A stretch of DNA of 63,573 bases, the filler included, from Hausera hauseri (taxonomy: Eukaryota), in the NCBI GenBank assembly GCA_046269625.1. It is 11 parts of 11 records of this genome, joined end to end, with 100 filler letters (N's around TTAATTAATTAA, not from the genome) between each part and the next. Parts side by side here need not be neighbours in the genome. Positions count along the whole stretch, not along the records: positions 19,748 to 26,411 come from JBJURY010077326.1; 10 more parts are not named here. One strand, given 5' to 3'. Below the pieces are notes generated by a model. The model was given only the letters and a program-made list of their open reading frames with translations. It searched no databases and was not told the DNA's origin. A program made the translations under genes and the position numbers. Of this stretch, positions 19,648-59,128 are shown piece after piece; position 1 is the stretch's first letter, and every line of letters begins with the position of its first letter.

Positions 19648-19751
19648 NNNNNNNNNNNNNNNNNNNNNNNNNNNNNNNNNNNNNNNNNNNNTTAATTAAT
19701 TAANNNNNNNNNNNNNNNNNNNNNNNNNNNNNNNNNNNNNNNNNNNNATTA

Positions 19752-21527
19752 ATGCCAAAAGCTGTAGGTATCGTGGCCTGCGACTGCGCAAAACCTAGCG
19801 AAGGACAGAGATACTATTTAGTTTATCTGGAGAAGTGCCCGAATGCCGACGCAAAACAGCTAACAACGACAAGTGGTCATAGATATCGTGTTTATCAAGA
19901 ATCCGAGTTTATAAAAGTGAAAGTTCGAGAATGTTACGTAAAGAAGTCATTCTTCCTCTTCAATTGTTCCTATTATTACGGAAATTCTGACATTATCGAG
20001 CCAAAAACGCCTTTCGAACCAATAATAATATCGCAAGCACAATGTCAGGACACTTTTAAGATCGGAATAATAACGATTCAAAATGCACAAATACCCGAAG
20101 TACGTAACAGAATAAAATATACCCGAATTTTTATGGAAGGAAGAATTGATAAAGCCATGGAAGGCACTTGTGTTGGAGTAAATTACGATGTTGGAGGTGC
20201 TATTGCCCTAAGAACAGTAGCAATCGAAGATTATCAAGTCCAATTGAAAGAATACTAAGCACTGTTTCACTCACAAACGAAGTTAATGACGACGATGAGT
20301 GAATGCGAATATGACAACGGCGACTGCGATACTGGGGAATCAAAAATAACATGGGAAGCATCTATAAACAGGTGTCATTTGACGTAGTTGAAAGAAGGAA
20401 GATTTAATAAGACAGGGGGTAAAACGGCTGAGAAAGAAACAGCAACGTACAAAGAAGGAACGAAAAAAGTTAAGATGACGGAAGTAGCTACAATCGTGTA
20501 TTCGGAGAATCCAGAGGAAATGATGTGATTTAAAATCACTGTAACGATAAGGAAATGTAACGAAGAAATATCCAGAACCAATTATAAAGGCATATTTCTT
20601 TCACCAAAAGAGATACCCGGAGCAAAGATGAAGATAGACAAATACGACATAAAGTTAACACAATACTTTGACAAGATTGATTTTTTGATTAATTACGTTA
20701 GAAAAGAGATAAGAAGTTTATACAGAGAAATAATAATGAATGAGTGTAAATTAAATTGTGAAATAATACGAAATAACGAATCCCGATATGGTTGCACCAG
20801 TGATTCCATTCAGCGATGGAGTAATTGGAAGAGTAATGGCCGAAGTACTAATCACCATCGAGTGTAAGAGAGTAGAAGTAACGATATGATCTACTATAGA
20901 ATGGACCACAGAATCGCTAGTGGTCTATCATGCGGAACCAAGATACGTAATGCCAGTAACAAGAATATTGATGGAACCCATCGCTAAACCGACCCAAGTT
21001 GACAACTGTACTTTTAACATGTCACCTATGTTTAAGTTGGATGACAAAACATGGACTAGAATGTTAAAAAGGGAAACAGACCCAAAACCAGAAATGTTAA
21101 GTTTGATTAACTTACAAAGGAACCAAAAGTTTGAACCCCTTACTGGGATATCACAAGGGAGAATCTATACGCAACAAAACTTAGAAGATTACCGAAAAAT
21201 GTTGTTATTTCCTCAGCTGAGACAACGGGTAATAACGGGACTAACCAGGAGAGTAATGTGGGTTGGAGAAGGATCACCGCAGTGTGAAAATTTAATGGGA
21301 AGAGATTATTTGAAAAAGGTAACAAGAAATGTTATGGAAAAGATGTGGAGAAAATTTCTATTTTCGGACAAGCAGCGTCCGGTTTCCTAGCGATATACTT
21401 TATTATTAGCACCTTGTGGATAGTATTTACTGCGCTTGGTACGACATATGCAATATATGCAACAGTAGGCTGTTCATGGAAGATTTTGATAGCAGTGATA
21501 CCTGCAGTAGCAGGTTGTTTTTTATGA
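19752..21527 (+). pseudogene. Chuvirus-type (class III, gB-like) envelope fusion glycoprotein, decayed
   Basis: Colinear motifs recalled from chuviral and retrotransposon-captured glycoproteins: IVAxDC..C..YQES..V.V.EC..F.C; G.I..G.C.G..Y; C.Y..G.C..G...W; KIDFL..Y..I..LY.EI...C.L..EI; AEVL...C..VEV; Y..PVTRIL..C...PMFKL...W; G.IYT...L..Y..L.FP..R. A C-terminal hydrophobic anchor follows (FGQAASGFLAIYFII). Stops and frameshifts are present. Confidence 0.8.
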
Positions 21528-21939
21528 AATCACGACGCACAATTGAAAAGGAAGGTACTCCAAAAATAGAAAGAGATTCGCCACATAGTATGCTAAACGA
21601 AAAGAACAATGATGACGGCAACCTAAATATGAAATTGAAAAAGGGCAAACATTTAGAATTAAGCAATTAGCACTGAAACCGCGAAAGCAGAAATATAGGC
21701 AAAGATTGGTAACTGACGTACCTCAACTAAACCCAACAGATGAATACAACGGACAGGTTCATAACGAACATGTGCTGGTCAACCAGTCAGCTCCTCGATG
21801 TGATATGCGCAGGACTGTACTCCACATATCAAATACAACGGATGAAACAATTTTGATGAAGATCGGACGCCGTATAAGCATTAACCTACGTATAAAACAC
21901 GATAAGAACGAACTGCAGACACCCATAAAACCGGAGGTA

Positions 21940-24900
21940 GAATGAATATCCGTTGACGGCTCTAATAGATACAAGATCTACAACGACAATAATGGGAAAA
22001 AGCCAATTACCGAAAGAATTAAAAAGGAAATTACAAAAACGTTAGTCAATATCGGAGCGTTTGATACAGAATAAATCAAGATGGTTTTGGAAGCCGAAAT
22101 TAAGATTTGTAAACAGACTTTAAAACACACTATAAGGATAGCGGAGAATTTGACCAATGAAATCTTGATTGGATACGATATATTGAATCAAAAGAAAATG
22201 TTTACATCGATGTGATAACAGGCCAGCTCAAGATATTTGATAAGGACCAGAATGAAGGAACGGTCTCATTAGTAAGAGACACCGTGATCCCACCACTCTC
22301 TAAGATAGTGGTGCATGGTAAAATAGAAAGTAAATTAATTGATGCTGTACACTTCGAACCATTCCCACAAATTATGGAGAAATATGAAGTTCCTGTTGCC
22401 GCTCACGTAGATAAAGTAGGAGACGGAAAAGTTCACTTAAGGATTTACAATGCAGGAAATAAAGAAAACGATTATGAAAAGACACTAGTCTATGAAAAGT
22501 GAGGGCTATTGAAAAGTGCTAAAGGAAGAAACTAACTCAGTGATTTCAGACGTAGATAAAAATTAGACGGAAAAATTAAAGGTGCAAAACAAAGACAAAG
22601 GAGAAAAGAAAGTTACCAGCATTAATTGGGAAGAAGATACAGAAATGCGAGGTTCTGACTAAAATCGACCTACAGAAGGGTTATTGGCAAGTAGAAGTAA
22701 AGGAACAAGATAAAACTAAAACAGCTTTGTCAATAGGCGCAGGACTATGGGAATTTAACAGTATGCCATTTGGACTAAAGAATGTGCCACCAACGTACCA
22801 AAGAGGAACGGAACTCTTAATTTTAGATGCCCCCACGCCATGGTATATATCGACGACGTAGTAATAGCATCGTCGAACTTCCGGCAGCATTTAAAGTATT
22901 TACAGGACCTCTTCAATAGATGCGAAATAATGGGCTTAAAAATAAACCCGAAGAAATGATCGTTCGCTCAGGCCGAAGTGGATTTCCTAGGACACCGAGT
23001 TGATAGACATGGCGTAAAGCCTCAAGATAAACTCCTAAGAAAGATAAGAGACTTTCCGAAACCTACTACGGTTAGAGAATTACGTCGATTCCTATGGCTG
23101 GCAAATTATTATTGAAGATTTATAAATGATTTCAGCAAGATTGCGAAACCTTTGTACGAACTACTGCGAGAGGACCTAGAAAAAATATTATGGACAAGCG
23201 AGTGCCCAAAGGTTTCGAACAGTTAAAAGACAGACTTCTCCAGTATTGATCTATCCACGTGACTAAACCATTCATATTTGCAACCGATGCAAGTGACTAC
23301 GGAGTCGGAGCGGTCCTGCCACAAAAGGACGAGGATGGAAAGGAACATCCAGTGGCCTACGCCTCGAGAAAGCTCAATAAACACCAAAGGAAATATGCGG
23401 TAATTGGAAGAGTTATTAGCAGTAAAATTCGCCTAGGAAGTATTTTCGCCCTATATTAGCGAAAATAAATCTCTGCTGATCTATACAGACCATCGACAGC
23501 TACAATGGTTAAAACAACACGAAAATCCAAATAGTAGATTATTATGATGGGCTTTCAAGTTACAACCTTACACGTTAAATTTTCAATACAAACCTGGAAC
23601 GCGAAACGCAAACGCGGACTACTTATCAAGAATGCCCTATAAATTAGAAACAGAAAAAGCAGTAGTAGCAGCATTATGGAGCATGGACGGATATGTGGAG
23701 AAAATCAAGGCAAATCAGAGTGAAGACATTGAGATAAGAGCCATTAAGAAGTATATATAGGATACAACGATACCAGCTAATAAAGAACAAGCTCATCATC
23801 TGGTCCGATTCAGTGAAGCCTAATAAAAAGAAGGATTCCTATATTTTATCCACCAAAACCGACCAGCCCTAGTAATTCCAAAGAAGAACAGAGCAGTTCT
23901 GCTAACCCAATACCATGACGCATTACTTGGTGGATACCAATCAATGAGGAAGACGCTGAATAAATTGAAACGAAAATATTTTTGGTCAACAGTGACGAAA
24001 AATGTTCAAGAATGGTGCGATAGCTGCAAATTATGTGCCACCCGAAAGAAAACTAGATCAAAATTTAAAGCACCTCCCAAAGTATGGGATAAGCCCCCAG
24101 CACCCTTCGAGTTTACCGTTATGGATATAACAGGGCCATTACTGCTAACAAGGAACGGAAATAGATATATCTTAGCTTTATCTATTCTTTCGCTCGTTGG
24201 GTTGTCGCCTTACCTATGGCCAGCATGAAGGCAGAAATACTTGCTGAGAAATTTGTAGAAAACATTGTGTTCAACTATGGAGCTTCTCGAATTCTCTTAA
24301 TTGATCAAGCATCTAATTTAACTGGAAACGTAATACAGGCCATATACGATATCACGAGAATAATAAAACTGTAATCCACACTGGGACACCCGGAGAACAA
24401 CGGAATAGTTGAAAGATACATTGGAGATTTGAAAGGAAAGCTACAAACAGTACTGAATACTAGGCAAGACAAATGGGATGAATACATCATTTCATGCGTC
24501 GGTCCTTGAGGCCATTAAATAGACACCCTTTTATCTTATGTATTTAAGAGACGCAAGATTGCCGATTGACTTATATTTCAATGTATAACCTACTTCACAT
24601 CTGATAGAAGTAGAAGAATACAAGCAACTAATGCAAGAACGCCTCCAACTAGCATACAAGATAATTGGAGATGACCAGAAAGATTACAAGTTGAAATATA
24701 AGAAGTATTACGACTAGAAGACTAAACAACCAAAAATTAAATAGGAGAAAAGATGATGTTATATTTGCCAATGAAAAAGAAGGGTAAAATATCTAAACTA
24801 GATAGACCATATAAAGGACCATACAAAGTGGAAAAAGTGGATTTGCCTAATATCAGCTTAAAGAAAAATAACGTCTCCCTCAAAGTTCGCATCAACAGGT

Positions 24901-25043
24901 GTAAACCAGCAGCCAAAGAAAGTGAGTTGAGAAAAGACGAACAAGAGTTAGTACGAAGTACTAGCGAGAAAGTAGTCGAAGTAAACCCGACATATAAACC
25001 ATATCAGATAAAGAAATATCCGATGTTGATTGTTTCATATTAA
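21940..25043 (+). mobile_element. Ty3/Gypsy pol (PR, dUTPase-like insert, RT, RH, IN, GPY/F), decayed, with an internal RT deletion
   Basis: ALIDT(R)S at 21959, ILIGYDIL, IDLQKGYWQ, MPFGLKN, YIDD at ~22846, FATDASDYGVGAVL, KYFW..WCDSCKLC and KLDRPYKGPYKV. Confidence 0.9.
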
Positions 25044-25204
25044 TGCCCGAAGTTCTAAGCCAAATAACAAAACAGGAAATCGAACAAGCCAAAGTGCGAC
25101 ACGCAACGGCTATAAAAGAGGATGCGCTAGTGAAAAGTTTACAATATAGAATAACATACTCAAGAAAAGGTCAAAAATGTGTGAGTACCTGAAGAAAACT
25201 GACT

Positions 25205-25747
25205 ATGGAGTATATGATAGGAATACAAGTAATATTCTTGGATGACGACAGAAGAAGTCCTAATAAACGACAATATGACTGCTTACTCCACCCATGGGTT
25301 ATCGAAGTACAATGTGTGGTAGAAAACTCAGATGTTCATTATATATATCTCACGTTTATTAAGAAAAGGAGAGATTACTATAGAAGTCAATATACTAAAT
25401 TTTACAGATTTATAAGAATCCATACTAGACATGAAATGAACGAAACATTATTAGATGAAATAATAATTACCCAGTTACCAGCAAGGTCGATTGGATTTAA
25501 AAGTGGAAGATATTGCATCAAAATTGCAACGATAATAGAACTAGAATATATTCGATGGATAACCATAGCTATAAAAGAAATACAGACTCAGGTAGTAACG
25601 AAATGTAGCATCACTGATGAACAACAACGAGTCTGTTGTAACGTGAAAAGAGGAAGAATATATAACGTTGACTATATGCTGTCTCGAAAAGAATATGGTA
25701 AACTCCTAAACAGTTTGAAACGAAAAGGACCAACAATGTATATGTGA
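25205..25747 (+). CDS. Unknown 180 aa ORF 3' of the Gypsy integrase
   Basis: An open ATG ORF with the same A-rich strand bias as the element. Confidence 0.45.
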   Translation: MEYMIGIQVIFLDDDRRSPNKRQYDCLLHPWVIEVQCVVENSDVHYIYLTFIKKRRDYYRSQYTKFYRFIRIHTRHEMNETLLDEIIITQLPARSIGFKSGRYCIKIATIIELEYIRWITIAIKEIQTQVVTKCSITDEQQRVCCNVKRGRIYNVDYMLSRKEYGKLLNSLKRKGPTMYM

Positions 25748-25792
25748 CATCAAAATCAAAAAGAATATGATGAGAAACAAGATAACGTCACG

Positions 25793-26278
25793 ATGCCGGC
25801 TGTGCATTCCCCGCTGACGAAGGCAATTAATGAAAAGAAGATGACTATTTTGATTAAACTCTATGCGTCATATTACCGCCAAAAACGCTCTATATGGAAA
25901 AACTTAACAATTATAGCCGCCTCAACTGCGCTAATAGTATCTATAAAACCGGACTTCGATTTCGCGAAAGTGAATCTTACCTGCAAGATAAGAGATATGG
26001 TAGTTGCAAAAGGAGTTATAACTCCCGACGATCTAGTAGTGCTATGTGCGGCATTAATCCCCAATACCAGGTACACAATCATTCTACAGTTATTTGATGA
26101 TAATAATAAAATAACCTCCACCAAAGAGATATCAGCGCTCACAAAAATGGAAGTAAAAGTAAGGTTACTATATGAGATGGCTACTATCGGCAATAAAATA
26201 ATCATAAGACCCTCAAGTACGATATATAAACACTCCTGTATGGATATAACACTGATAAGCTCGACAGTGCATGAGTAG
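25793..26278 (+). CDS. Unknown 161 aa ORF, possibly an FN3-like beta-sandwich
   Basis: LIPNTRYTIILQL resembles the FN3 L-x-P-x-T-x-Y tyrosine corner. The ORF ends at the AGTAGGGG junction. Confidence 0.4.
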   Translation: MPAVHSPLTKAINEKKMTILIKLYASYYRQKRSIWKNLTIIAASTALIVSIKPDFDFAKVNLTCKIRDMVVAKGVITPDDLVVLCAALIPNTRYTIILQLFDDNNKITSTKEISALTKMEVKVRLLYEMATIGNKIIIRPSSTIYKHSCMDITLISSTVHE

Positions 26279-26411
26279 GGGAAAAAGGCGTTTCTGGCAC
26301 AAGGGTGGGGGGAGGGGGGTCCGCCCACGCATCCCGTGATCCGCTTACTCGTCACGTGCGGCACGTGATTGGTCACGCGATGCGTGCGAAAAGTCACCAG
26401 ACATTTGTTAC
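26274..26411 (+). repeat. Element terminus starting AGTAGGGGAAAAA, GC-rich with CACGTG and ATTGG
   Basis: Same terminal motif as 10381(+) and 138-150(-). Runs into the contig end. Confidence 0.55.
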
Positions 26412-26511: not shown

Positions 26512-29500
26512 TTGTCTGTGCCAGAAATATGGCGAATTTTAAAGTTGAATGTTGACAAATATGATATATGGCGTTCTTGTCGCAGTGATGGTTGTTTCAT
26601 GTTTATTACGTAAACGAGAGATGTGTGGTCCGTTTGGATAGTGAAGGAACGGGCGATAAGCAAATGTGAAAAATGTTTCAAAGCTAAAACAATGTCCAGG
26701 AGTTCTCTATCGAAGGTGGAATAACGGCGTTCCTGTGGCTGCAGCTTGCGTGAAAAATTTCTAAGAGTTCATTTATACCTTGAGATATTTGATAAAGAAC
26801 CGCTCCTACTGCTGTAGTTAATGCATCGGTTGTTAAAATGAGGTTAGCATCAGGTTTTGGGTAGGCTAAAATTTCGACTGTTTTGAGCTTGTCGCGGAGT
26901 TCATCGAACTGGTTAATACATTCTGGTGTTTAATATATAAGCTTTTTCTTTGGCCCTGCTCATAGTTGAGCGAAAGGAGCAGTTAACTGGCTAAAGTGTG
27001 GGACGTATTTATGGACAAAATGTAAAGTCCCAAGGAAACTGCGCATGTCAGTAGTGGTTTTTGGTAGCTCAATGTTTCGTAGTTGATGGATTCTATCAGG
27101 CTATGGACTGTGACCGTCAGGTGTGATGACGTGGCCAAAGAAATTGACCTTTTTCTGAAAGAAGGAACACTTAGAAAAGTTCATTTGCAAATTGTAGTTG
27201 TGCAAGCGTTGGAAAACTAGTCTGAGATGTTCTTCGTGTTGCTTGGGTGATGCCGACGCGACGAGTATGTCATCAATGTACGGATATGCAAATGGCAAAC
27301 CTGAAAGGACTGAATTAATGTGCCGTTGAAAAATTTGTGCTGCATTTTTTAAACTAAACCGCATGAATGCATATTCAAAAAGACCAAAGTGTATTATTAT
27401 GGCAATTTTTAGGATGTCTTCTGGTGCTACCGATATTTGGTGGTAGGCTTTTTCGAGATCTATGGTCGAATAGATTGTTGTCCTGTGTAAGGAATGTAAT
27501 ATATCCTTAATCAAACGTAGAAAATAAGCATCCATGGTAGTGACGTTATTAAGTTGGCGATAATCGCCGCATGGACGGAATGTAACATCTTTTTTCGGGA
27601 CGACATAAAGTGGTAACGTCGAAGGCAATTTGGAGCGTTTTATTATGCAAGCTTGTTCGAGTGCAGAGAATTCCGCTTAGACTGCTTGTCGACGGCGTGG
27701 TGAAAGTGGGTGGAGTTTCTGCCTAACGGGCCTAAGGTTTTCTATGATGATATGATGAAACGTCGTGTTAGCCGGTCGAAATGCTGGATCTTTTTTTATT
27801 GTATGGAAACAATACTGGATTAAGTATTGTTGCATTTCTTGTCTAAGCCTAATAAGGGTTTGATTGGACGTAGTGTGAGAAATGGTAGAAATCGGGCCAC
27901 CTAAATCGGACCTCAACAGAAAAGTAGGACTGTTTACATTGGTTTTATCGGTAAGGTTTTTATTCACATTGGTTAATGGTTTCTTCAATATTGATTTTAT
28001 AGTTGAGATAGGTTGCATGATCGGCTGGTTGTTTGTAGGGGTCGGCTTTGTTGAACTGCTTTTAATGATTCGACGTTGTCTACAGTCTACTAGGAGGTTG
28101 TAGAAGGATAAGAAATCAGACCCAAGTATTGAAGATTGTGTATCGGCAACGATGAATGTCCAGTTGAAAATGTCGGAGAATGGTGGTAAAGTGAATTAAA
28201 CTTTTGACTTGCCGAAGATGCGTAAAGCTTGGCCGTTAGCTGTGTATACTTAGTGTTAGATGGCGAAATGGATGGTGTTTTGATAGATGGTGGTAACAAA
28301 GAAACAGCAACCCCTGAGTCAATGAGGAAGTTAATTGGTTGATTGGGTTTGGATGTTAAGAAGGCTTTTAATGTGAAAACAGCATAGGTACGGCTATTAG
28401 ATTGAAGACGTTTGCCTGTGCCAGTATGTGCCAAAACATCTGGCGGCTATGTCAGTTTTTTGGATACAGAATTTGCGGAGTCGGGAGAATTACGATGGAA
28501 TTGGTTAAGTCGACTGGAAAACGTGCAACCGTTGATGCAATTTCGGGCTTTATTGCTGAACGTATTATGGTAAATACAAATGATGTAGGATTTTTGAAAA
28601 GCTGATGTAAAGAATTTACACCCAAAGCAACATTTGTTGGATTGGTCCTTGAATTTAGTGTGATAATAGCACACCATAGGTCGAATAGAAGACCTAGCGA
28701 ATCTCGAATTTTGCGATGAAGCACGGCTATGATTAGGTGTGAATCGACCTCGTCGCGGCATGGATAAATTGTCCAGTTTCGAAGTTAAAGCAGAAATGGC
28801 TTGGCGTATTGCTGTGTTTTCAGCCCGGAGAGCATTTATTTGGTTATTCAGCGCTAAGATTTCAGCGTTAGGTGGTTTCAAAGGTGGTTGTAATGTGGCT
28901 GCGACGATAGGAGTATGGTGTGTATCTAATATTTCATAGCTTTTATCAGCCAGTTGTTCTAACTTTTCTAACGTACCGGTGTCTTCAACGACGGTTAGTA
29001 AAGCGCGTATTTTTTCGGTAACTATTGAAGGAAACATCTACGCAATAAGTCGGCATTGTTTGTCTGATTTACCCCTAACTTGCTTAATTGGGTTAAATAT
29101 GTTTGTAAAAATTCTGAGGGTTTCTGATTTCCTTTTTTGTTGCCGTCAAAATATTTATGGGTAATATTATCCAGAGATGGTTCCGTGATTTTTAGTACAG
29201 AGCTAAAGAGTGTTTTGTATAGGTCACCACTTTGGAAAATTTCCGACAAGTTGGAAAGTTGTGACTTAATGTTGGAAGGCAAAAGTGTAAGCAGGCTGTT
29301 TGCTTTAAGAAAAGAGTCGACAATATTATTCGACTTCAACCAGCCGCATGAAAGTCCAACCACGTTCGGCTGGAATGTTGCTTATCAACGAAGTATTCTA
29401 CGCAATTTAGGTTTACAGTGGATGACGGAGATAAAGGTGGATTTAGAGGTAGGTGAGGCTTTTGGATCAGATCCACCTAGCAGACGATAGTGTACGGTGA

Positions 29501-30494: not shown

Positions 30495-30702
30495 GATTCG
30501 ATTGTGCTAAATACTTTTCGACCCACGTGGAGTTCATTGTTTTTAAGGTAAACTTGAACATCCTGCTGTAGTTAAATGTCAGAAAACAGATCGGTGTAAC
30601 ATAATGCACAAGTGATAATCGAGGTAGAGAGTCTCTTGATTGTTCAAAACGCTGTTTCTGATTTCTGGACTGTGGTGGCGCCCGAGTCCGAGGCACCACA
30701 GT

Positions 30703-31409
30703 CTTGCAAATCTTTCAAGTGTTGTTTAAAATCCGTTGATGCTACTATTACGTCGTCTATATATACCACTGCATGTGGTGCATCAACAGTAATAACTCCA
30801 TTCCTCTTTGAAAAGTTGGCCGCCCATTCTTTAATCCAAATGGCATTCTGTTAAATTCCCATAGCCCTTCACCGATCGAGAATGCTGTTTTTGGTTTATC
30901 TTCTTCTTTTACTTCTTCCTGCCAATATCCTTTTTGGAGGTCAATGGTGGTGAATATGTTTGAACTATGTAACTTGTCTAATATTTTGTCTATCCTTGGT
31001 AGAGGATACGCATCTGTTTCCGTTATCTCGTTCAATGCTCTATAATCTATACAAAATATTATGGCGCCATCTTTCTTTTTCACCATTACTACTGGAGCCG
31101 TCCACGGGGAGTAACTTGGTCATATTATTTTATTTTCTCTCATTTTGCTTATAATTTTACGAGCTTCCTCTTTTTCGTCGTACGCCAGTCTACATGGTCA
31201 CTTCTTTATGGGTTTACCTTGCCCATATTTTAACATAATAACATGATGTATCGCGTTCATCGTTCCTAGATCATAATCGTTTTGAGCGAAACGTGTTATT
31301 ATTTTTCTCTAAAAATTTTATAACCTTTCTTCTTTTTTTGTTTTATATCTTACAATCTCGTAATTTTTCATCCCAATTAATATTGGTAGTTTCTTTCTCT
31401 TCCTTTTCT
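30703..31409 (-). mobile_element. Gypsy RT fragment, same family as the env-linked element
   Basis: IDLQKGYWQEEVKEEDKPKTAFSIGEGLWEFNRMPFGLKN is near-identical to the peptide encoded at 22664-22800. Confidence 0.9.
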
Positions 31410-37111: not shown

Positions 37112-38341
37112 GAATCCCTTCAAGAATCGTCATTCCACGCTTGGTGTCTCAGTCTAGTAACTCGACTGCGTGTTCATCCATCCACCAGAAGTCGGGTAAC
37201 CGATCAACGTTGTCTAGACCAATCATCCGTATTGAGCAGTATCGAATGGACACAGTCAATTGCAGATTCCCAACAAGATCGATGTAGTAATCCTGTGGCC
37301 ATGTATATCGCCGTGGCTACACGTTACTGTAACGAGATGCCGGAAATGACAATGCTATCCATACTTAACAACATAATCGTGCGTCATCAGCAATATCGAC
37401 TTGCTTTAGAACTCATCTGCAGCTATGTTGAGGGATCTCCTAAAGGTCAACTGGAATTTCTCATTAAAGATGAAACATTCAAAGGTTTATGGAGGCAATT
37501 AGTTCATGCAGATGATACATACTACAACATGGTGAAGAGTATTATCACACGAGAGTTCCCTGGGCCTGTACTCAGTCGCATTGGCAATTCCTTCTGTCCT
37601 AGTATCATCATAGGCTCTGGGGATAAGGAACGACAAGAGACTGTGATGCGTTTCTTCCTACGTCTGGTACTAGATCAAACAGGATGGATGGTTGACCATT
37701 GTCTGTTGTGGCTGCTGGACCGGCTGTTGAGATTGAATACGACATTACAGTTACAGTGTGCAGTCGATGAAATGCGTCTGTTTGTCAAATTACACACCGA
37801 TAAACAATTGTCTGATGGGGCTAAACGGTCTGGTCTGGCACAGTTGTTCAAAATTGGAGGAGGGTTTAGTACGGCATTGAGTCAATTGGCAGCAGGGAAT
37901 TATTTCTGGGTGCGTGTGTATGTACTGGAGGGACAGTTGATTACAGAGGATGATATGGGCATATGGAGGACATTTTTATTAAAATTACTCATTCATAAGA
38001 AGAAGAAGAATGATCGAACTGTGGGTACTGCCATGGTTAATGCTTGTAAACAACTCAAATTGAGTCTGTCCATTCCGTGTACTTGTCTTGCCTTGGTCCA
38101 ATCTGCACAACTCATAGGACAATGTCCTCCTGATGAATACGCCATCATTAAGGCAGCCTCTATTTTCTTTCCACGCTATCTTGGAATGGCACGAGCATGG
38201 GACTCAACTTTGACTGACTACGGCAGTGTTGGTCATCACGTGTTTCAGGATGACGCATTGCATCCGATTTTGTTACAGGCTCGCACTGCCATTTCTGCTG
38301 CGCAAGCCAATCAGTCATCTTTGTTGGATTCTGTACCTCAG
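37112..38341 (+). CDS. EPG5: EPG5 autophagy tether, one long internal exon (410 codons)
   Basis: AG acceptor at 37110-37111 and GT donor at 38342, with an open frame between them. Colinear with mid-EPG5: W..L..RL..H, FL...E.F, FPGP, W..D..LL.LLD.L, E..W, A...LKL, FF.RYL, G.VG..F. Confidence 0.75.
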
Positions 38342-39299
38342 GTTATTTGATTTTGTATTGTCTATCAGGGAGGGGTTGCCTTTGAATGATTGGATGGTTG
38401 GTTGTTACTTTTTCTAGAGGAGTTATAGAATGTTACATGAGTTGTGTATTTATATTTAATTTACAACGATAGAAATGTTTGGCGAATTGTTTTGTATAAA
38501 TTCAAATATGAATATAATTTTTGCTCTTATCGAACAATTTTTGAGCTGTTGTTACTTGTTTTCAATATCTGTACTTACTGCATACACAATTATCACGTCA
38601 AGGACAACAACTGTATGTGAGTAATGCCACTCCTGTGACTTATTACAGCAATTGCACATCACAACAGCATTTGATATTGAAACAAATGTCATATTAACAA
38701 GGAATAGCACCTTACTGTTAGTCAGAGTTTTACAAGTTCTATAGGTTCTACATGTACAAAATTTTATAATTGTAAGTAGGAATTTAAACGAATATTAATG
38801 TTTNNNNNNNNNNNNNNNNNNNNNNNNNNNNNNNNNNNNNNNNNNNNTTAATTAATTAANNNNNNNNNNNNNNNNNNNNNNNNNNNNNNNNNNNNNNNNN
38901 NNNCTTACCTTTCCCTGGCAGCAAGGACTTGCCCTGCCTGCAGCACTGGTCTCATCCAGTCCACTGACCTGCATGTGGTGTGAGGGTTGCCTTGGCGCTG
39001 ACCACACCAACCAGGCTTGACAGCGAGGCTGTTCGCCTGGCATGCAGTAAGGTGTCGGTGGAGGAGACACAAGGCGGGTGGTGTTTTTTGCTGACTAGGA
39101 TGAGGGTTTCGAGCTGCTCAACCCTATGCTTGTCCACCGGAGTCGGATTACGGTTGGTCCACCCCTGCTGAAGGGTCGGGCTGGATTCAGGTCTCATGAG
39201 TAAGGATCCAGGGACCTGGACCTTCTGGCTCCGCATCCTTTGGATATTATTCATTTTTTCAACAGGATACGACGAAAATGTGAGTACTTTCTTTCATTA

Positions 39300-42200
39300 C
39301 TGAAAGCAATAGATGTTCAGCATCGGCGAGTTATGACCCGCACACCTTTTGGGGTGCTGGTTTTTTCAGCGGTCACGTTTTTTCTTCGAGAAGATTAACG
39401 TAATTAGCTATTCATATGCTGGCCTGGGCGCTAAACGAGTTGTGCATGCTAGGCTACATCCGGATGAGTTGCCTTCTTATACCGGAGAGTATGACATCGG
39501 GAAGCGCTCCTGCTCCCGTCCTCCAACCGGAGTGACCGGGCACAGTGCTATCCCCATTGTTCATGCTTATACTGATTGCATGCTAGAGCTAGTTAGCTGT
39601 GAGCTAACCAGCCATGCGGGTGAATTGGCGGTGTTAGGGAAAGCCGGCGCGTGGAATTGCGGCCCGCTCTCTTCCTCTACTCGCCCTCAGTGATGGTTGC
39701 ACGGTGAGAATAACAGAATTCTACCGTCGCTGGAGCGCAGTTTGACTGCAGAATTCGGAAGGTTCTGGCACGCCAGACGGCGGCCCGTTCCCCGTCTTCT
39801 TAGCTACCACTGTGCGGTGAGAGACTCTCCCGCCATAAGCGGCGCGGGTTCGGTGGCCCGCTCCGCACACATCACTGTATGAGTTCCCGCTTCGGAGAAC
39901 GATGGCGTCCTGGTCCTCTCAGCCACTATACCGGAGAGTATGACACCGGAAGCGCTCCTGCTCCCGCCCTCCAACCGGAGTGACCGGGCACAGTGTTATC
40001 CGCATTGTTCATGTTTATTCCGATGTCGATGTGTCTGCTTCAAGGATGAAGCATGGATTAGCATGCTAGAGCTAGTTAGCTGTGAGCTAACCAGCCACAC
40101 GGGTGAATTGGCGGTGTTAAGGGAAAGCCGGCACGTGGAATCGCGGCCCGCTCTCTTCCTGCACCAGTCTTCAGTGATGGTTGCACGGTGAGATTAACAG
40201 AAATTCTACCGTCCCTGGAGCGCAGTTTGACTGCAGAGTTCGGAAGGTTCCGGCACGCCAGACGGCAGCCCGTTCCCCGTCCTCTCAGCTAACACTGTGC
40301 GGTGAGAGACTCTCCCGCCATAAGCGGCGCGGGTTCGGTGGCCCGCTCTGCACACATCACTGTTATGACTCTCCGCTTCGGAGAACGACGGCGTCCTGGT
40401 CCACCCGTTCCGAATGGAAGGTTGGATCCAGGGCCCCGGTCTGAGGAAGGACCCTGGGATCTGGGCCTTCGGGACTCCCCATCCATGCAACTGCCACCAT
40501 CGTGGCTCGAGCCAACGTCTTCATACGATGGGCAATGGACGCCAGAGGTCTGGCGATCCATGAGTATGAAGTGGGGGATTATGTGTTGTTTTTATGCTTG
40601 CGCTCTTAATAAAATTAAGACCGTCACCTAAGCATATTCCTAAAATAAGTGTCCAGTTCAGTCAGGTCTCATGACTCTGTCTGTCTCACACACGTTTTTT
40701 CCCCCACTCTGGGTAAGCAAAGCCCGCTAAGCTTATGCCTAGCTGGCCTTCTGGTTTTTTCTCTTTAAAAAAATAAAATAAAATAAAAGAAAAAGAGAGA
40801 GAGAGAGAGAGACTGGGTGAGGCAAAGTCCGCTAAACCTCTGTTTAGCCGCCCTCTTGTTTTTTTCACCAAACACAGTCCTCCTAAAATTATCATGCTTG
40901 CCCTCCCCCTTGTGGCCGGCGAGCTCATTCACCAGTCAATTTTCACTTCACCGTCAGACGGAGGATGTAAGTGAAATCAGGCGACATAAGTTTTGTCACA
41001 AGCAAGGCCGCCTTGACCCCGCCCCGGCTTGAATCTGCAACAGTGCGATGAACGCTGCTCGACGTTCAGTGGGGACAAGCCCGGTTCTGGTCCACAATTC
41101 ATCTGAATGTGGCTCTCCCGGTTTCAGGGCCAAATAAGCAGAAGGCCTGGGAGCTTCTGCACAGCCTTTTTTGGAGCAAAGCCTCCCATGGTCACAGGAG
41201 AGAGTGTGACGGCACCAGAGGCCTACAGTGTCCCGGGTTGTTACAACAACCACCCAACAATTTTTACACCTGTTCTATGAACAGGTGGATGAAGGGTTTG
41301 ATAAAAGTTGGTTACAGACAGCAGTTTGGACCACACCCTTCTGGTTCTGTGAGATCCTGGAGACCCGGCTCTCGTTTTCCCTGACAGGATCTCGCTCTTC
41401 AAGCAGAAATTCAGGAGCTCCTGTCTCTAGGGTTCCTGGTGGGGAGGAATACGAGGGTTTTCTATTCCCGGTATTTCCTTGTCCCAAAGAAATCGGGTGG
41501 ATTGAGACAGATTCTGGACCTCTCCCTCTTCAACAAATGCATAATGAAGAGGCCCTTTTCACATGTTAACCAAACAGTGCTTACATGTGTGGGGAAAGGC
41601 AACTGGTTTACATCAGTTTTTCATGTCCCGGTCATTCCGGTGCACAGAAAATATCCGCGTTTCTCTTCAGAGGATCCAGTTTCCAGTAAACCGACTTCCG
41701 TTCGGTTACACTCTGGCACCACGCATCTTTTCCAGGTGCGTGGAAACTGCTCTGCAGCCTTCTGTGCTCAGTGCGGATGAGAATTCTGTTTTATCTGGAT
41801 GACTTGCTCCTGCTGGCCCGTTCAGACAGGATGCGGCGTCACAGACAGAGAAACTGCTAGCACATCTAAGGATGCTGGGGTTCTCCATAAATTAAATAAA
41901 TAATTCTCTTGTCCTGTCCCAAGTCATCACGTACTTGGGAGTGGACCTGGATTCAGTCTCCATGACAGCGAGACTGTCTCAACACAGGAAACAGGCTCTG
42001 TTGATACTGTTAATCATGTCAGACCCTGCAGATCTGTAACGGCCTTAACCATCATGCATTTGCTGGACATGATGACAGGGGTCCACACAGTGGTTCCGCT
42101 TGGCCTTTTTTGCACACGAGACGCTTACAGCGATGGTTCTCATGGCAAAAGATCAATCCAATTCATACCCTCCTCTGTGGAGGCGGACCTGAGCCACTGA

Positions 42201-43490
42201 AGCAGCCGCACACACTGTCAGTGGGAGTTCCTCTGAACAGTGTGATGCATCACGTGCAGGTTTTTTCACCGACGTATCGCTGACAGATTTGTTAAGTGGA
42301 AGTGGTTTTGTTCGCCAGCAGAGAAAACGCACAGTGCAGCCTGTGGTTCTCTCTGAGCTCGTGGGACATTCCCCCCCTGGGGGTGGATGTTTTATGCGCA
42401 CCGTTCTTGGCAGAACAAGTTCTTATGCCTTCCCACCAGTCCCTCTGATTCCATGTCTGCTGGACCGGATCAGGGAGGTCTGGCACCTGGTGATTCTAGT
42501 CGCCCACAGGCGCACAAGTGCACACAGGTTCCCACTCCTCCACTCTTGCTGTCGGGTTGCCCTGCAACTACCTTGGCAGGAGGACGCTCTCCTACAGGCA
42601 GGAGGAGCGATCAGGAGCTTCCCAGTGCTGGGCCAGCCCCTCTGGGTCTGGCTGCTGAACGGGAACGCCTGGGGAATTTGGGTTGTCCGCTGAAGTGGTG
42701 CGCACCATTCAGGATGCGCACACAGCCTTCACGGTCTCCTCTTACACAGCCAGGTGGTCATCCTTCCAGCGTTGGTGTGTGGAGTAAAATACAGACCCAG
42801 TGTCGTGTCTTTTGCCCTGTATTCTGTCTTGTTTACAGATGTTAACAGACAGAGGTTTAGTTTCAGCATCGTTTAAACGTATGCTGCAGCAATTCCTCCT
42901 GTCACGAGGGTTTTTTGGTGACAGGACGGTCTTTTAATCATTCTTTGGTTAAACCGTTCTGTTATGCGCACGCTCGTGCTGCAGTGGGAGTGACGCTGGT
43001 GTTACGCGCTCTGACAAAGCTTCGCTTTTAGAGCAAGTGTCACTTAAGTTCCTGTCACAACAAATGGCGCTGCTGTTAGCATTATCATCAGCAAGAGAGT
43101 GAGTGAGCTGTCTGCTTTATCAGAATCTTCTTCCTGTCTCAGGATGCGAGAGGGTGGTGGCTCGGCCGTTTTAACGTGCCTACGTGGTTTTTACGCCGAA
43201 GAGCATCACAAGCTCTTACAGCTCCAGAGTCATTATTCTGGATGGCTTTTTCCCCCTCCTCACAGTTCAGAGGAAAAGGCAGTTTCTCATTTTCTGTGCC
43301 TGTTGCGGGCGCTCTCATGTTATGTGACGCGCACAGCAGAGATGAGACACACTCAGTGTCTGTTTGTGCACTACAGAGAGCAGTCTGCAGGACAAGCTCT
43401 GTCTTCACAGAGACTGTCACATTGGATCTGCGAGGCGTTTTCGCAAGCTTACAGCTCATCAGGTGTGCGGCCTCCAGCTGTACTGTCAGC
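39300..43490 (+). mobile_element. DIRS1-type tyrosine-recombinase retrotransposon, decayed (gag, RT, RH, MT, YR), teleost-like
   Basis: FYSRYFLVPKKSGGLRQILDL, LPFG..LAPRIF, FYLDDLL and YAFPPVPLI. YR motifs RVSELSALS, RALSCYVTRT and LSSQRLSHWI..AY. Confidence 0.88.
39478..40402 (+). repeat. Tandem duplication (~450 bp) in DIRS ORF1
   Basis: TATACCGGAGAGTATGAC.. at 39478 and 39927, with highly similar downstream sequence. Confidence 0.9.
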
Positions 43491-43729
43491 TCAAAAGTTC
43501 AGTTTTCTGGATCCTAATAGGTATTTCGACAACAATAACTAAATATTTTCAGCTTGATTTCAAGATTTAATAAGTTGTTTTGTTGACTTCACACAAACTG
43601 TAGCGGGTCCTGATGTAGGCTGTACTGACTCCATAGAAAGACAGTAAATTACCTCTTTGTCCACATTGGTCTCGTTTTCCCCGCGCTTCAACTGGGAGAG
43701 CCACCCTGGCTGCAGGAGGATGGTCGGCG

Positions 43730-45950: not shown

Positions 45951-47026
45951 GTGTAATTCAGCAAATTGCCTTTTAAAAATTCTCATTTTTTATTGTTTGC
46001 CCCTCTGCACGGTTTTAACCAAAAGTGTCCATTTTATTCTAATCGCTTTCACTTTCCGCATAATTGAAAAATCTCACGCACAAAAAAATTTCCGTGCCTT
46101 CTGACAGATTTCCTTAATTTGTCTATTCCTTTTTCCAATTGAAATGAAAATGACATCCTGTCCCATAATCAACAAACTCTACCCAAACTTGTCCAAAAAC
46201 TCACATTCTCATCATCATTATTATTGTGGCATTCATAAACTTATACTTACCTTATCTGCAATATCCTTCCCATAGAGCTCATTTCATGAAATTTCCCACT
46301 ACTTCCATTGCCTGTCGGTAAAAACAATAACAACAACAAAAGACAATTCTCATAATCTACCCCTCCAAACCACCCAAGACCAATGCGCAATTACCGAACA
46401 AAAAAAAGAAATAAAAACCATCGCAACAGTTTCCATAACTTCACCATACATTCCGTAATGACTCATTTTACTTCATAACAATTGCGTCGCCTTTGCAATT
46501 TCCCGAATTGCAATAAAGTTTGGTTATTTTTTTCAGCTTTGCATACAGAGATGAAGACATTTGCAAAAACACTGTTTAAGTGTATCAATTTTTTTAGATT
46601 AGATGTTTGGGAGGAGTTACAGCGACACAGTTCAAAACTGACATCATGACCTGTTGGCTTTTATTAACTTAATCCTGTTTTAAATGAGACAAATGAATGA
46701 ATCTGAGCAGTAAGTATTCAGCAGATGCAACAGCATCACCACTTTTTGGATTGCTGGATGAAGAGTGTAGTTTGCAGCCAGCTAGTGCTCAGAAACTACT
46801 AACCTGGGATTTAAATTTCTACATTTCAGTCGTAATCACACCCAGTTGGATAAAAGGTCATGACTGACAGGTGTTTGAGCCAATAGGATGCAGGTGTAAA
46901 TCCCTCCCATAGGAATAAAGAAGGCCNNNNNNNNNNNNNNNNNNNNNNNNNNNNNNNNNNNNNNNNNNNNTTAATTAATTAANNNNNNNNNNNNNNNNNN
47001 NNNNNNNNNNNNNNNNNNNNNNNNNN

Positions 47027-48035
47027 GGAGACGATGTGGAAAATATCGGTAAAAAAAATCAGCATCCATGAAGGTACGGTCGCTCCCAGTGTCCAGGACG
47101 GCTTCGACGGGATGGTGATCTATCTGTAATATAAGTGAACGCAGGTTGGCCGGCTTGATCGTAACTCGGTTGATTTCGATGGGTCGAGAAAAAGAAACTC
47201 GCTTCCTTCGGTAGTCAAGATACTGGCGAGGTGCAGGTGGTGAAGGTGACCTGGGTGGTGAAAATCGTGACGGTCTCGGCTGGCGGTTAACTGGTGGCAG
47301 TGCCGGACGACGATGAACGTTGTGCTGCCAGCGAGGTGGTGGTCGACTGTCGGACGCTCGAGGATGATAAGCTTGCTGGGGCTGGTGGGACACCGGTACA
47401 GGAGGAGAAGATTGGACGGCATGTCGGCTGTCAAATTCTTTGGCATATTTGAAAAGTTGGTAAGAGGATGAGATCGCTTTGGCGTCGAGTAGGTCTTGAA
47501 TTTCAGGGGTGCATCGTGGGATGATGACCCGTAATTTGTTAGAGTCCGAAATGTCATCACCGAGGGCTTTAAAGAGTTCCATTTTTCGGCTGATAAATAA
47601 TTGGAGAGGTTGGCCAGGTTGCTGCCGGATGGTATATAATTCTTCCTCTAGTTGAAGACGGGGAATGGTTTCTTTAAATATAATTTGCATCTCTTGTTGA
47701 AGATGGTGATAGGGAGTGTGATCCGTACGACCTTCAATTTCGGCTTGGCCGACCACGTCAAACCACAGCTTGGCTTCGCCTTCGAGGGCGGCGGTAAGGA
47801 AGGCGTATTTCTGGGAATCTGGTACGCCATGGGTGAGAAAATGTCGCTCAGCTTCTTGAAAGAAGACCTTGACGGGCGTGGATCCATCATACTTTTCTGG
47901 AAGTGCGGGCGGGCGGGGCGTCAAGGCAATGGCGAGCTTGGATAGTGCCTCTGCGATGTCCATAGATGGGGCGGATGCAGTGCTTTCGGCGGTCCGCAAG
48001 GATAGGCCTTTGAGTTGTTGTTGTAGGGAATCCAT
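47027..48035 (-). CDS. Gypsy gag-protease, second diverged copy, truncated by the contig end
   Basis: Paralogous to the N-terminus of 49515-54227; contains AVLDTGS. Confidence 0.9.
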
Positions 48036-49514: not shown

Positions 49515-52500
49515 TTAAAAATGCTGGTGCGGAGGAGAAACATATCTCCGCCGTGGTGGACGATGGCGCTGCTGGCGCATAAAGGCAATGTCGGATGCTG
49601 GCGAGTTTTCCGCTGGGCCATCTTGTTTCGGCTGTAATGCTGCGGCAGATCCATCTGGTGGTGGAGGCTGAGGAGGTGAAGTCTTTTTCTCCGGGAGTGT
49701 TCGAGGTCGGAGTTTCTTTTGGTACGGATGAGTGGTCTGTCGGTGCTGCTGGCGAGGAATTCTAGGTACGGAATACGGGAACCTTTTGGTGGGTTTCTTC
49801 AGGATGCTCCGGGGTTCAGACGGGATCTGTGTTGGACCAGCGACCTCTGGAGATGAAGTGGCAGATGGTGGACGCGGAATGACGCCGCGAGGCTGCCGGC
49901 GTCGCTGCGGACGCATTGGTGCACTGGGTTTGGAAGCTGGATCCGGGTTGCTGGAAGTTGCCGAAGGAGTAGGTCGCGGAATCTTTGGTGCAGGAGGACC
50001 GAAGGCTTGTTGTGGGCGCTTCCGTCTGGGTCCTTGAATGGCCGGTAGAGTGCGTGGAGGATGGGATGGAGTTTGTTTCTTCGGCCGAGAGGAGGATGAT
50101 TGCGTTGATGGTTTACGCTTCGTGCTGGCTGTTGCGGACGGTTGAGCGGCCGTGGTCGGTGTAGAATCAGCGGATGACGTACTTGGAGAAGCAGCTGGTA
50201 CGAGGGCATTGGACGGAGCAGTAGCAAATAGAGGCATCTCGCTGCGGGAATAGTACTTCTTTAGCTGGTCTACATTTGCCTTGATCTCCTGCTGACCGTT
50301 GAGTGGCGTGATGGTGGCGTTGTTACCGCGTAAGCGAATAATTTTATATGGCCCGTCAAATTTCTGGCAAAATTTTGCAACTCGTTGTTGAGATGCTGAA
50401 GATTGAAAATGAGTGGCTTTTAGAACAAGATCGTTTAATTTAAGGTTAGGTTCTTGCCGACCTTGGTTATAGTACTTTGCCTGCAGCGCTTGTTGTGCGT
50501 GTGTTTTCTTTAAACATTCTTCGGCTAACTTGGTTACATTTTGAGGTGAAAATTCTTGTGCACGTTCAGGTGTAAAAAATAAGCGATCTAGGGGTGTGAT
50601 AAGCTTTCGGCCAAGAAATATTTCTGCTGGTGTTTTTCCCGTCGTGTCATGTTTCGCGGTGCGTAAGGCAAAAGATAATTCATCTATATACAAATCCCAG
50701 GAGGTATGGTGCTGCTCAATAAACATACTTAAGAAACGAACAATATTACGATTGACACGCTCAGCTATGTTAGACTGAGGTCTGTATGTTACAGTCTGTG
50801 CATGCACAATTTCGAGTCTGTGACACATGTCGGTAAATAAATTTGATATCAGCTGTGCTCCATTATCGGATATTAATTTAATCGGGGCCCCAAATTTTAG
50901 TACAAAATTATGCATAAAAGCATTCGTTACAGCACTAGCTGATGCCCGTTTTAAAGGAACAATTTCTGTCCACTTTGAAAAATGATCGACAATGACTAAA
51001 AGAAAACGATATTTGCCGGCGTTACTACGAGGGTAAGGACCCAAAAGATCTATTCCGACTATTTCATTTGGAAAGGTAGCCTGTACACTGTGTAAGTAAC
51101 CGACGGGTTTAGTATTACGGTAATTATATTTTTGACAAGTGTCACAAGACTTTACGTATTCCATGATATATTGTCTTAATTTTGGCCAAAAGACTGACTG
51201 GCTAGCTCGAGCAAAGGTTTTTCTTATTCCCCCATGCCCAGCAAGGGGGGAATCATGTAATTTATGCAGCACCATTTCTCGTAAGGAATGTGGGATTACT
51301 GGTCGAAGCTCACTGTTGGAATTTAGTTTACCCTTATAGTACAAAAGCTCCTCCACAATTTCGTAATCCTTCGCGCGGCTTTGAATGATAGTTTTATTAA
51401 TCTTAGTGTATTCGTCCGGATTAAGTAGAAAGGCATATATATCGCTAAATTCAGGATCATTTTGTATTTCTTGTTTTAATTTATCGCGTTCTTCGAATAC
51501 AACAGATGTTAAAAGGTCGCATTTAGCATTCGAGCTTTCAACAATTTCAGGGATTCTGGAAAGTGCATCGGCGACTTGGTTTTCCTTCCCAGGTTTATGA
51601 ATAATATTTAAATTATATTCCTGCAATTTAAGTGCCCACCGTATGATCCTGGGAGGGAAATTCTTACCCGTGTGTAACCGGGTTAAAGGAGCATGATCTG
51701 TGATGACAGTAATGGGTTTTTCCGACAAATAGATTTTGAACTTTTCTAGCGCGAAAAGGATAGCTAGAGTTTCTCGTTCTGCTGTGGTATAATTTCGTTC
51801 AGCCGAATTTAAAGTTCTGGATACATATGCTATGGGATGGCCGTCTTGAGCCAAGCAGGCACCGATACCGACGAGACTACCATCACTGTGGATTGTAAAG
51901 GGTTTCGTCGGATCAGGATGTCTCAGAATGGGTGCCTTAACCAATTTCGCTTTTAATTTGTCAAATGCTTCTTGTGCTTTGTCGTTCCAATTAAACTTTA
52001 CTCTTTTACGGCGTAAGCTGTGTAGCGGTTCGGCAATATCTGAAAAGTGAGGAATGAATTGCCTGTAATACGAGCATAAGCCAAGAAAAGAAGCAAGTTG
52101 TTTAGCCGTTTTAGGAGTAGGAAAGTTTTGTACTGCCTCGATTTTGGAATTGTCAGTTTTTAACCCGTCCCGTGTAACAATATAGCCTAGATACTTTAAT
52201 TCCTCCCGAAAGAAATGAGATTTGGAAAGATTGATAGTTAAACCGGCCTGTTGTAATAAAGTAAAGACCTCGCGGAGGTCGGCAAGGTGTTGGGCAAAAG
52301 AAGACGAAGTGACGATGATGTCGTCCAAATAAACTAATGTAGTTTTTCCCAAAACTGGTTTAAGGACCGTATCCATTGTCTTTTGGAAGGTGGAGGGAGC
52401 TCCACTTAGGCCGAAAGGCATTCTTGTGAAAGCGTATGTGCCAGATTTAACGATGAATGCAGTTTTATCAACATCTGACGGGGCCATAGCTATTTGGTGG

Positions 52501-54227: not shown

Positions 54228-54260
54228 TCCAGAAGTAAATGAAGCTGAAGTTACTGACTA

Positions 54261-58100: not shown

Positions 58101-59128
58101 ACTCCCAGAATGTCATCAATTAAGGGCATCGGATAACTTACATTGGCGGTTATTGCGTTCAGTGCCCTATAGTCGACGCAAAATCGATGACTTCCATCTT
58201 TTTTTGGAACGATAACTATCGGTGACGACCATTCCGATCTAGTCCTTTCTATAATTCCAGCCTGCAACATGTCTTCTATGGCTTTTTCCACAATTTCTCT
58301 ATTTCCAAGTGGTGTTCGATATGGTTTCAAACTAATTGGTGGATGATCACCAGTATCAATTCTCATCGTAACTGTCTGCGTTCTTCCTAGTTCCATATCC
58401 GATAGTGCGAATACGTCAGGGTGTTTCCTAACAAACTTCTCTATTCTCTCTCTATGTGTTGGGTCTACTTTTATTGTTTCTAGTAGTTTCCTTGTTCTTT
58501 CATCATCTTGTGTCACTTCTGCTACTACCTTGCCTTGTTTCTTTCTCCAAAGTCCTTCTCGTATTTCTTTTAGTACATTGTCTCTGTGTATTCTTCTTTG
58601 TCGTCTCTCTTCTGTTTCCATACTTATTCGTGTCTCTAATTTCTTTTCTCTTTGGTTACTTCCCATGTTTCTAGTGATTGTTTCGCATTTCGTTGTCTGC
58701 GGTTTCTCCACTTTCGCTATAATGCAACCTTTTTGCAAAGTGATTGTCTTTCCGGTGTGGTTCGCCACCATCACTGGTATCTCTTTTCTCCTGTTTAACT
58801 TCACTATCCCACATATGGTTTGTAGTCCGGGTTCGTCAATTATGTCTTTTTCTTCTAATGCTGTTACCAGTGTGCTTTCTCCTTCTTCCCAATATTGATT
58901 TCCTTTCATTACGGCTATCACTATGTTCAACGAATTTGGTTTCATACTAATCTTTTGCTTCACCCGAATGATTGACGCTATATGTATGTCGTCTTCCAAA
59001 TCTACATATTCATCTTCTATCCTTATCTTTTTCAAGTCAAAATATATGCGAGCATTGTTCTTTTGCAGAAAGTCTCTGCCTATAATCGCGCTCCGGCACA
59101 TGTTTTTGATTACTAAGAAATGGTGTCT
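55116..59128 (-). CDS. Intact Ty3/Gypsy pol (PR end, dUTPase-like insert, RT, RH, IN, charged tail), partial at both ends
   Basis: Open across the whole contig. Motifs IIGRDFL, AYIDD, LYTDASD, H..LGH..C.TC and IVTDNG. Confidence 0.95.

Follow-up and report, generated by a model that had tools for sequence, protein, structure and literature searches.

A glycoprotein B-type envelope gene ahead of protease and pol in a decayed Ty3/gypsy retroelement from the Hausera hauseri genome assembly

Introduction

Does an envelope gene that precedes the protease and polymerase genes of a Ty3/gypsy retroelement reflect the regular organization of a family, or does it mark a place where two elements have been joined by chance? 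This question is raised by a locus in the genome assembly of Hausera hauseri (GCA_046269625.1), in which a gene for a fusion glycoprotein of the glycoprotein B (gB)/chuvirus type (env) is followed on the same strand by genes for protease, reverse transcriptase (RT), RNase H and integrase. The stretch of DNA analyzed, hereafter called the window, comprises 63,573 nucleotides (nt), consists of 11 records joined by linkers and seems to derive from a mixed sample. The finding is carried by a single record of 6,664 nt (19748-26411). We consider it highly probable that the locus represents a dead member of a repeated family of Ty3/gypsy long terminal repeat (LTR) retroelements, in which a gB-type env gene precedes protease and pol and was likely read with them, and likely also with gag, as one polyprotein.

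Results

The env gene occupies positions 19748-21527 on the plus strand and consists of the end of a signal peptide, an ectodomain and a membrane anchor, as had been stated in the original prediction. The region 5' of env is not visible because the first base of the record already lies inside the signal peptide. In the closest relative, P0122, a similar signal peptide end is found ahead of 'xAxDC'. Hydropathy places the hydrophobic anchor at 21354-21527. Two successive frames matched the Pfam family PF24664 (Monjiviricetes_fusion, 653 profile positions, cut-off 27 bits): one match covers positions 17-349 with 83.7 bits and the other positions 354-545 with 82.3 bits. Four in-frame stops interrupt the ectodomain and the frame changes twice within env, near 20775 and near 21355.

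While word-index protein searches with the N-terminal half of env gave no matches, a HMMER search without word index recovered 77 relatives with the same query, the highest identity being 47% (P0122). A profile was built from 28 sequences, namely 27 of the 77 relatives and the N-terminal half of the window copy. All of its 32 matches in the PDB (E values up to 10) are herpesvirus gB, each of them weak (best E 0.013). As judged from its sequence, env belongs to the class III (gB/chuvirus-type) fusogens, in agreement with the earlier assignment. Scans of viral and metagenome contigs did not reveal any env relative, the phage collection gave no match, and an Atlas query with the N-terminal 169 residues of env yielded no usable match. 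Three loci were found when viral and metagenome contigs were scanned with the integrase; two of these aligned to parts of pol only and none to env or to the frame that follows the integrase (see below).

The env gene is separated by a spacer (21528-21945) from a degenerate aspartic protease at 21946-22191, which is recognized by the motifs LIDTRS (21962) and ILIGYD (22162) and aligns to the protease of P0125, the only Pfam match being Peptidase_A3B at E 0.088. Between protease and RT, a likely dUTPase-like domain (22197-22500) is indicated by weak PDB matches, three out of seven of which are dUTPases (E 0.19-0.34), and by its alignment to the corresponding region of P0125 and P0199. The RT follows at 22580-23200 (RVT_1, 39.7 and 36 bits; YIDD at 22846); comparison with a sibling fragment on another record shows that about 390 nt are missing from its 5' part near 22635. 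RNase H is of the Ty3/gypsy type (23211-23620; RT_RNaseH_2, 61.7 bits; RT_RNaseH, 58.7 and 39.3 bits). The integrase (23830-24930; Integrase_H2C2, 57.1 bits; rve, E 0.069) comprises a zinc finger with the H2C2 motif at 23914-24036, a core with D, D and E at 24121, 24300 and 24402, and a C-terminal GPY-type motif, and is colinear with the integrases of P0125, P0130, P0131 and P0199. All these features lie on the plus strand, and Pfam matches and motifs together confirm that the glycoprotein precedes protease, RT, RNase H and integrase, as had been proposed. The element had been thought to span 19748-25043. Its start was correctly given, but it continues to at least 26278, and the loss in RT had also been missed.

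The order protease-RT-RNase H-integrase, the gypsy-type RNase H and the zinc finger of the integrase identify the element as Ty3/gypsy, and all top matches of Pol are gypsy-type proteins. A BEL/Pao-type pol was ruled out, as both the Pfam families and the best matches are of the gypsy type; in mosquito BEL/Pao elements env reportedly lies 3' of pol. Every gene of the copy is hit by stops and frame changes, at similar rates in env, RT, RNase H and integrase. The copy is dead and decayed. The shared decay and A-rich bias noted earlier for the two parts hold, with an A content of 0.36-0.43 throughout, except that the anchor falls outside this range.

The spacer probably represents the tail of env together with a linker to the protease. 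It contains a stop-free run of 109 codons, a length attained by 14 out of 2000 sequences simulated with matching dinucleotide composition, and no long repeat that could represent an LTR is present within 19748-26411. The description of this gap as coding-like and devoid of a visible LTR was thus appropriate. The distance from anchor to protease, about 199 codons in the copy, compares with 139-216 residues in those four of 11 relatives in which both motifs were found.

Whether the order is a trait of the family was assessed on 17 of the 77 env relatives, picked by length or rank and scanned for domains. The protease follows env in the same frame in ten of them, five of which also contain RT and RNase H. 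Not a single one of the 17 has RT before env, and the originally considered possibility of a nesting junction was not borne out. A zinc knuckle above cut-off is present upstream of env in two of the scanned relatives, including P0122, where this sign of gag is in frame with env; the corresponding region of the copy is off the record. With P0199, a cluster member that also carries ankyrin, six intact relatives, all found via env alone, combine env, protease, RT, RNase H and integrase in one frame, some of them with gag before env. In P0123 a Bcl-2-like stretch below cut-off lies upstream of env. Weaker env matches of 650-760 residues resemble stand-alone glycoproteins.

When a set of 198 proteins was compared with the RT-RNase H part of the copy, the six env-pol proteins took ranks 1-5 and 9 of 126 matches; with the integrase of the copy, they took ranks 1-4 and 16 of 106, one of them being devoid of an integrase. 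Env and pol therefore travel together, since proteins found through env head both rankings. The position of env ahead of pol, no more than about 2 kb away, is accordingly a family trait as had been proposed, and expression as one polyprotein is probable. As the intact relatives show, a single frame can accommodate gag, env and pol. One continuous gag-env-pro-pol frame is reportedly present, together with extra open reading frames, in the non-canonical nematode endogenous retroviruses of which Sacco and colleagues are said to have written in J Gen Virol in 2022.

Two peculiarities of the relatives deserve mention. P0131, a full env-protease-RT-RNase H-integrase polyprotein, has been annotated as a hypothetical protein in a metagenome-assembled genome of Flavobacteriaceae and is encoded on a contig of 9,084 nt, which is likely an animal retroelement binned into a bacterial genome. 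Several among P0125, P0126, P0127, P0148 and P0199 contain two to five protease-like domains per polyprotein, some of the extra ones after the integrase, with C2H2 or ankyrin domains in between.

The stretch covered by the record was found in one sequencing run, which may be source data, and no RNA run is listed among the runs containing it. At a threshold of at least 80% identity, 9,491 contig pieces align to the record and cover env, pol and the frame after the integrase; 5,874 of them are less than 90% alike. Given this abundance and divergence, the family is old and much repeated. Diverged contigs also reach into the spacer: one bridges the anchor (to 21441) and position 21654, another connects 21897 with the protease (21986), and the stretch 21723-21899 is matched by a third one that shows 22 differences. 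The RT fragment of a sibling copy resides at 30700-31409 on the minus strand of another record of the window, is 80% identical over 209 nt and has four env-pol polyproteins as its top protein matches. Env context was not found on the record of this fragment.

The integrase is followed on the plus strand by a frame of about 410 codons (25043-26278), overlooked in the original prediction, that is interrupted at two places by a single internal stop each. Its stop-free run of 184 codons was not equalled in any of 2000 simulations. A hydrophobic stretch at 25020-25060, which by eye resembles the end of the env signal peptide, spans the frame change before this frame. The polyproteins of P0125, P0131 and P0199 extend beyond the integrase, where a hydrophobic, signal-like stretch is followed by a small domain, then a stalk and then a membrane anchor. 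Exactly these three of 200 proteins contain the motif C-x2-L-x-P-x-T-x-Y-x-I, which in them is flanked by the signal-like stretch and the anchor and which is found in the window at 26045; the count is circular because the motif was derived by eye from the same sequences. P0130 has the signal-like stretch and lacks the motif. A possible weaker second copy of the Cys motif lies near 25630 in the window.

Atlas assigns the tail of P0131 to the neighborhood of fibronectin type III clusters, but the recognition value is low. A tail profile of four sequences gave 11 weak PDB matches (E 0.18-1.4), ten of which are receptors that we take to be fibronectin type III proteins. These weak similarities suggest that the 3' frame is likely fibronectin type III-like. 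The frame likely encodes a further membrane protein, which is the one part of the element that may be new. A membrane anchor was not seen in the 3' frame of the copy, which ends at a very highly repeated stretch. EF-hand and spike matches of the frame were below cut-off and were set aside.

It might be argued that the 3' frame is not part of the element at all and belongs to a neighboring gene or another repeat. On its own it has no match above cut-off to any Pfam family or PDB entry, and pairwise BLAST against the tails of the relatives gave nothing. A profile of the three relatives' tails nevertheless ranked the window piece first of 734, with a score of just 8.7 bits that was equalled by two of 2000 shuffles. 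Furthermore, the relatives carry the domain in frame past the integrase, and the frame in the copy is repeated in the sequencing run and shares strand and A-rich bias with the rest of the element. An origin outside the element is therefore unlikely, albeit by no means negligible. Within the record, summed depth peaks in the G+C-rich, highly repeated stretch at its end (26265-26411), with 20,635 in the last bin; this stretch contains a purine run and several CACGTG words. It represents either a further repeat by which the element is cut or the beginning of the element's own 3' end.

Discussion

Two further alternatives concern the relation between env and pol. The order could be real while env and pol formed separate reading frames, connected by splicing or frameshifting. 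The two frame changes between anchor and protease in the copy could be taken in this sense, but stops and frame changes are just as frequent inside env, RT, RNase H and integrase, and the env-protease junction is in frame in ten of the 17 scanned relatives, which renders separate frames improbable. Still less credible is an accidental order, in which a deletion or nesting event joined the pol of one element to an env from a different element or to an integrated chuvirus gene: the copy does have at least one internal deletion, and the summed depth is 12-120 over most of the spacer as opposed to thousands in env and pol, but this low depth at the 80% threshold is explained by fast divergence of the linker, the pol of the copy is closest to that of proteins found by env alone, the gap is coding-like and agrees in length with that of relatives, and both of its ends are bridged by diverged contigs.

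A family with env and pol in a single frame thus remains our preferred reading, and the following points weigh against it. Gag, the primer-binding site and the LTRs are off the record, and the full structure of the family was not seen. Several frame shifts lie between env and protease in the window copy. As its frames are broken, the single open frame of the family is deduced from relatives that are 30-47% identical. The entire env-to-protease gap is spanned solely by an identical contig of 642 nt, possibly source data, and not by any diverged contig. PF24664 was absent from all 120 Pol matches listed, which are 22-34% identical. In a quick, poorly resolved RT tree (122 columns, no outgroup) the copy falls into a branch of 19 rows (SH-aLRT 85), in which all six env-pol proteins are accompanied by 12 others. 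Finally, single-sequence AlphaFold modelling of env resulted in a failed fold (mean pLDDT 28), and the same holds for the AlphaFold model of the post-integrase part (pLDDT 37).

Comparison with published elements was based on parts of the respective sources. Chary and Hayashi (PMC13524379) describe 'errantiviruses' from Nematoda, Bryozoa and Platyhelminthes with an ENV of the HSV/gB class (HSV standing for herpes simplex virus) and the order GAG-ENV-POL. In the part of their genome table covered here, many ENV-POL candidates are from free-living flatworms and few from parasitic ones. The window copy resembles the Platyhelminthes C1a errantiviruses of Schmidtea mediterranea in its Ty3/gypsy pol, the gB-type env 5' of pol and the many copies, as well as in motifs and cysteine spacing of env domains I-II as compared by eye (PMC13524379). 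Unlike these elements, it is decayed, and its gag and LTRs are off the record. The motifs VYQE, TNYKG and TGES are all present in the window env, and within the 229 rows of the env domain I-II supplement their matches (5/5, 3/3 and 3/3, respectively) are exclusively Schmidtea mediterranea rows, whereby the motifs had been picked after viewing the Schmidtea rows and the comparison, being one of motifs, provides no identity value (PMC13524379). The three motifs are absent from the nematode rows of the supplement; nematode endogenous retroviruses with flipped env and pol are known from Sacco et al. (2022), as cited in PMC13524379. Neither a polyprotein nor a fibronectin-like domain is mentioned in the main text of PMC13524379. 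Because the order GAG-ENV-POL is published and the env motifs match only Schmidtea rows, the earlier suggestion of a new lineage with an independent env capture lacks support. The locus is genuine and represents a decayed element of a kind described before, the env-before-pol order being already known. What it mainly adds is a high-copy family in another host. As far as env similarity goes, the likely host is a flatworm or some related invertebrate.

The planarian element Burro has its env between gag and pol, in frame with both, as well as a dUTPase-like domain (Arkhipova and Yushenova, PMC6431247). The likely dUTPase-like domain between protease and RT of the window copy, with its weak match (E 0.19), would be a trait in common with Burro and the GYPSM1 giant LTR elements. 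The relatives are similar in the in-frame position of env between gag and pol and, with regard to the MATH, BIR, BCL2 and ankyrin domains of the giant planarian elements, in Bcl-2-like (below cut-off) and ankyrin matches (PMC6431247). The copy differs from Burro, as far as the published description allows comparison, by its short linker and single protease, and homology to gypsy Env and to fusion proteins of mononegaviruses is stated there for Burro env, which is not termed gB-type (PMC6431247). Mosquito BEL/Pao elements with a chuvirus glycoprotein (Dezordi et al., PMC7642597) share the glycoprotein class; their pol is BEL/Pao and not Ty3/gypsy.

If membrane topology and what is generally known about viral polyproteins are taken as a guide, the internal signal peptide would send the env ectodomain into the endoplasmic reticulum. 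There, signal peptidase of the host would free env from the gag side, and the env anchor would bring the chain back to the cytosol, where the viral protease would release the enzymes. Past the integrase, the second signal-like stretch is likely the beginning of another membrane protein, one whose domains resemble fibronectin type III. Particles formed by gag would acquire a trimeric class III fusogen on budding and could move between host cells.

In herpesviruses, gD, gH and gL act as partners of gB. It is conceivable, though we regard it as doubtful, that the polyprotein specifies two membrane proteins: the gB-type fusogen before the protease and, after the integrase, a type I protein whose fibronectin type III-like domains sit on a stalk rich in Ser/Thr and which would serve as attachment or triggering partner of gB, such that a two-glycoprotein entry system would exist in Ty3/gypsy. 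The entry of gB-carrying errantiviruses is described as unknown, herpesvirus gB needing partner glycoproteins (PMC13524379). Literature searches and searches in the text of PMC13524379 and PMC6431247 did not turn up the post-integrase domain, which may be shown in the figures and full protein sequences of these two papers or in other papers. The likely post-integrase membrane protein offers a lead, that is a candidate gB partner in the same polyprotein that can be traced in planarian elements.

Other elements and genes in the window

An Rfam scan of the window gave no matches. Several further gypsy elements are present on the minus strand. One record bears an intact gag-pol frame of 1,580 residues and a similar second gag-protease start (49515-54257 and 46971-48035, respectively), while an uninterrupted pol frame of about 1,340 codons (55116-59128) fills an entire record. 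A further decayed gypsy element at 26512-29500, whose gag is presumably CsRn1-like, shares its record with the sibling RT fragment. The decayed, G+C-rich element at 41385-43542 looks like what we take to be a fish DIRS-type retrotransposon, which suggests that the window mixes organisms. The minus strand also carries a divergent Mat89Bb/Asunder gene in two overlapping frames (60638-62228; 130 and 39 bits) and two frames containing tetratricopeptide repeats (2052-2883) that resemble CDC27, a subunit of the anaphase-promoting complex (ANAPC3 below cut-off). An open frame of 412 codons on the plus strand (37112-38350) has no Pfam match above cut-off.

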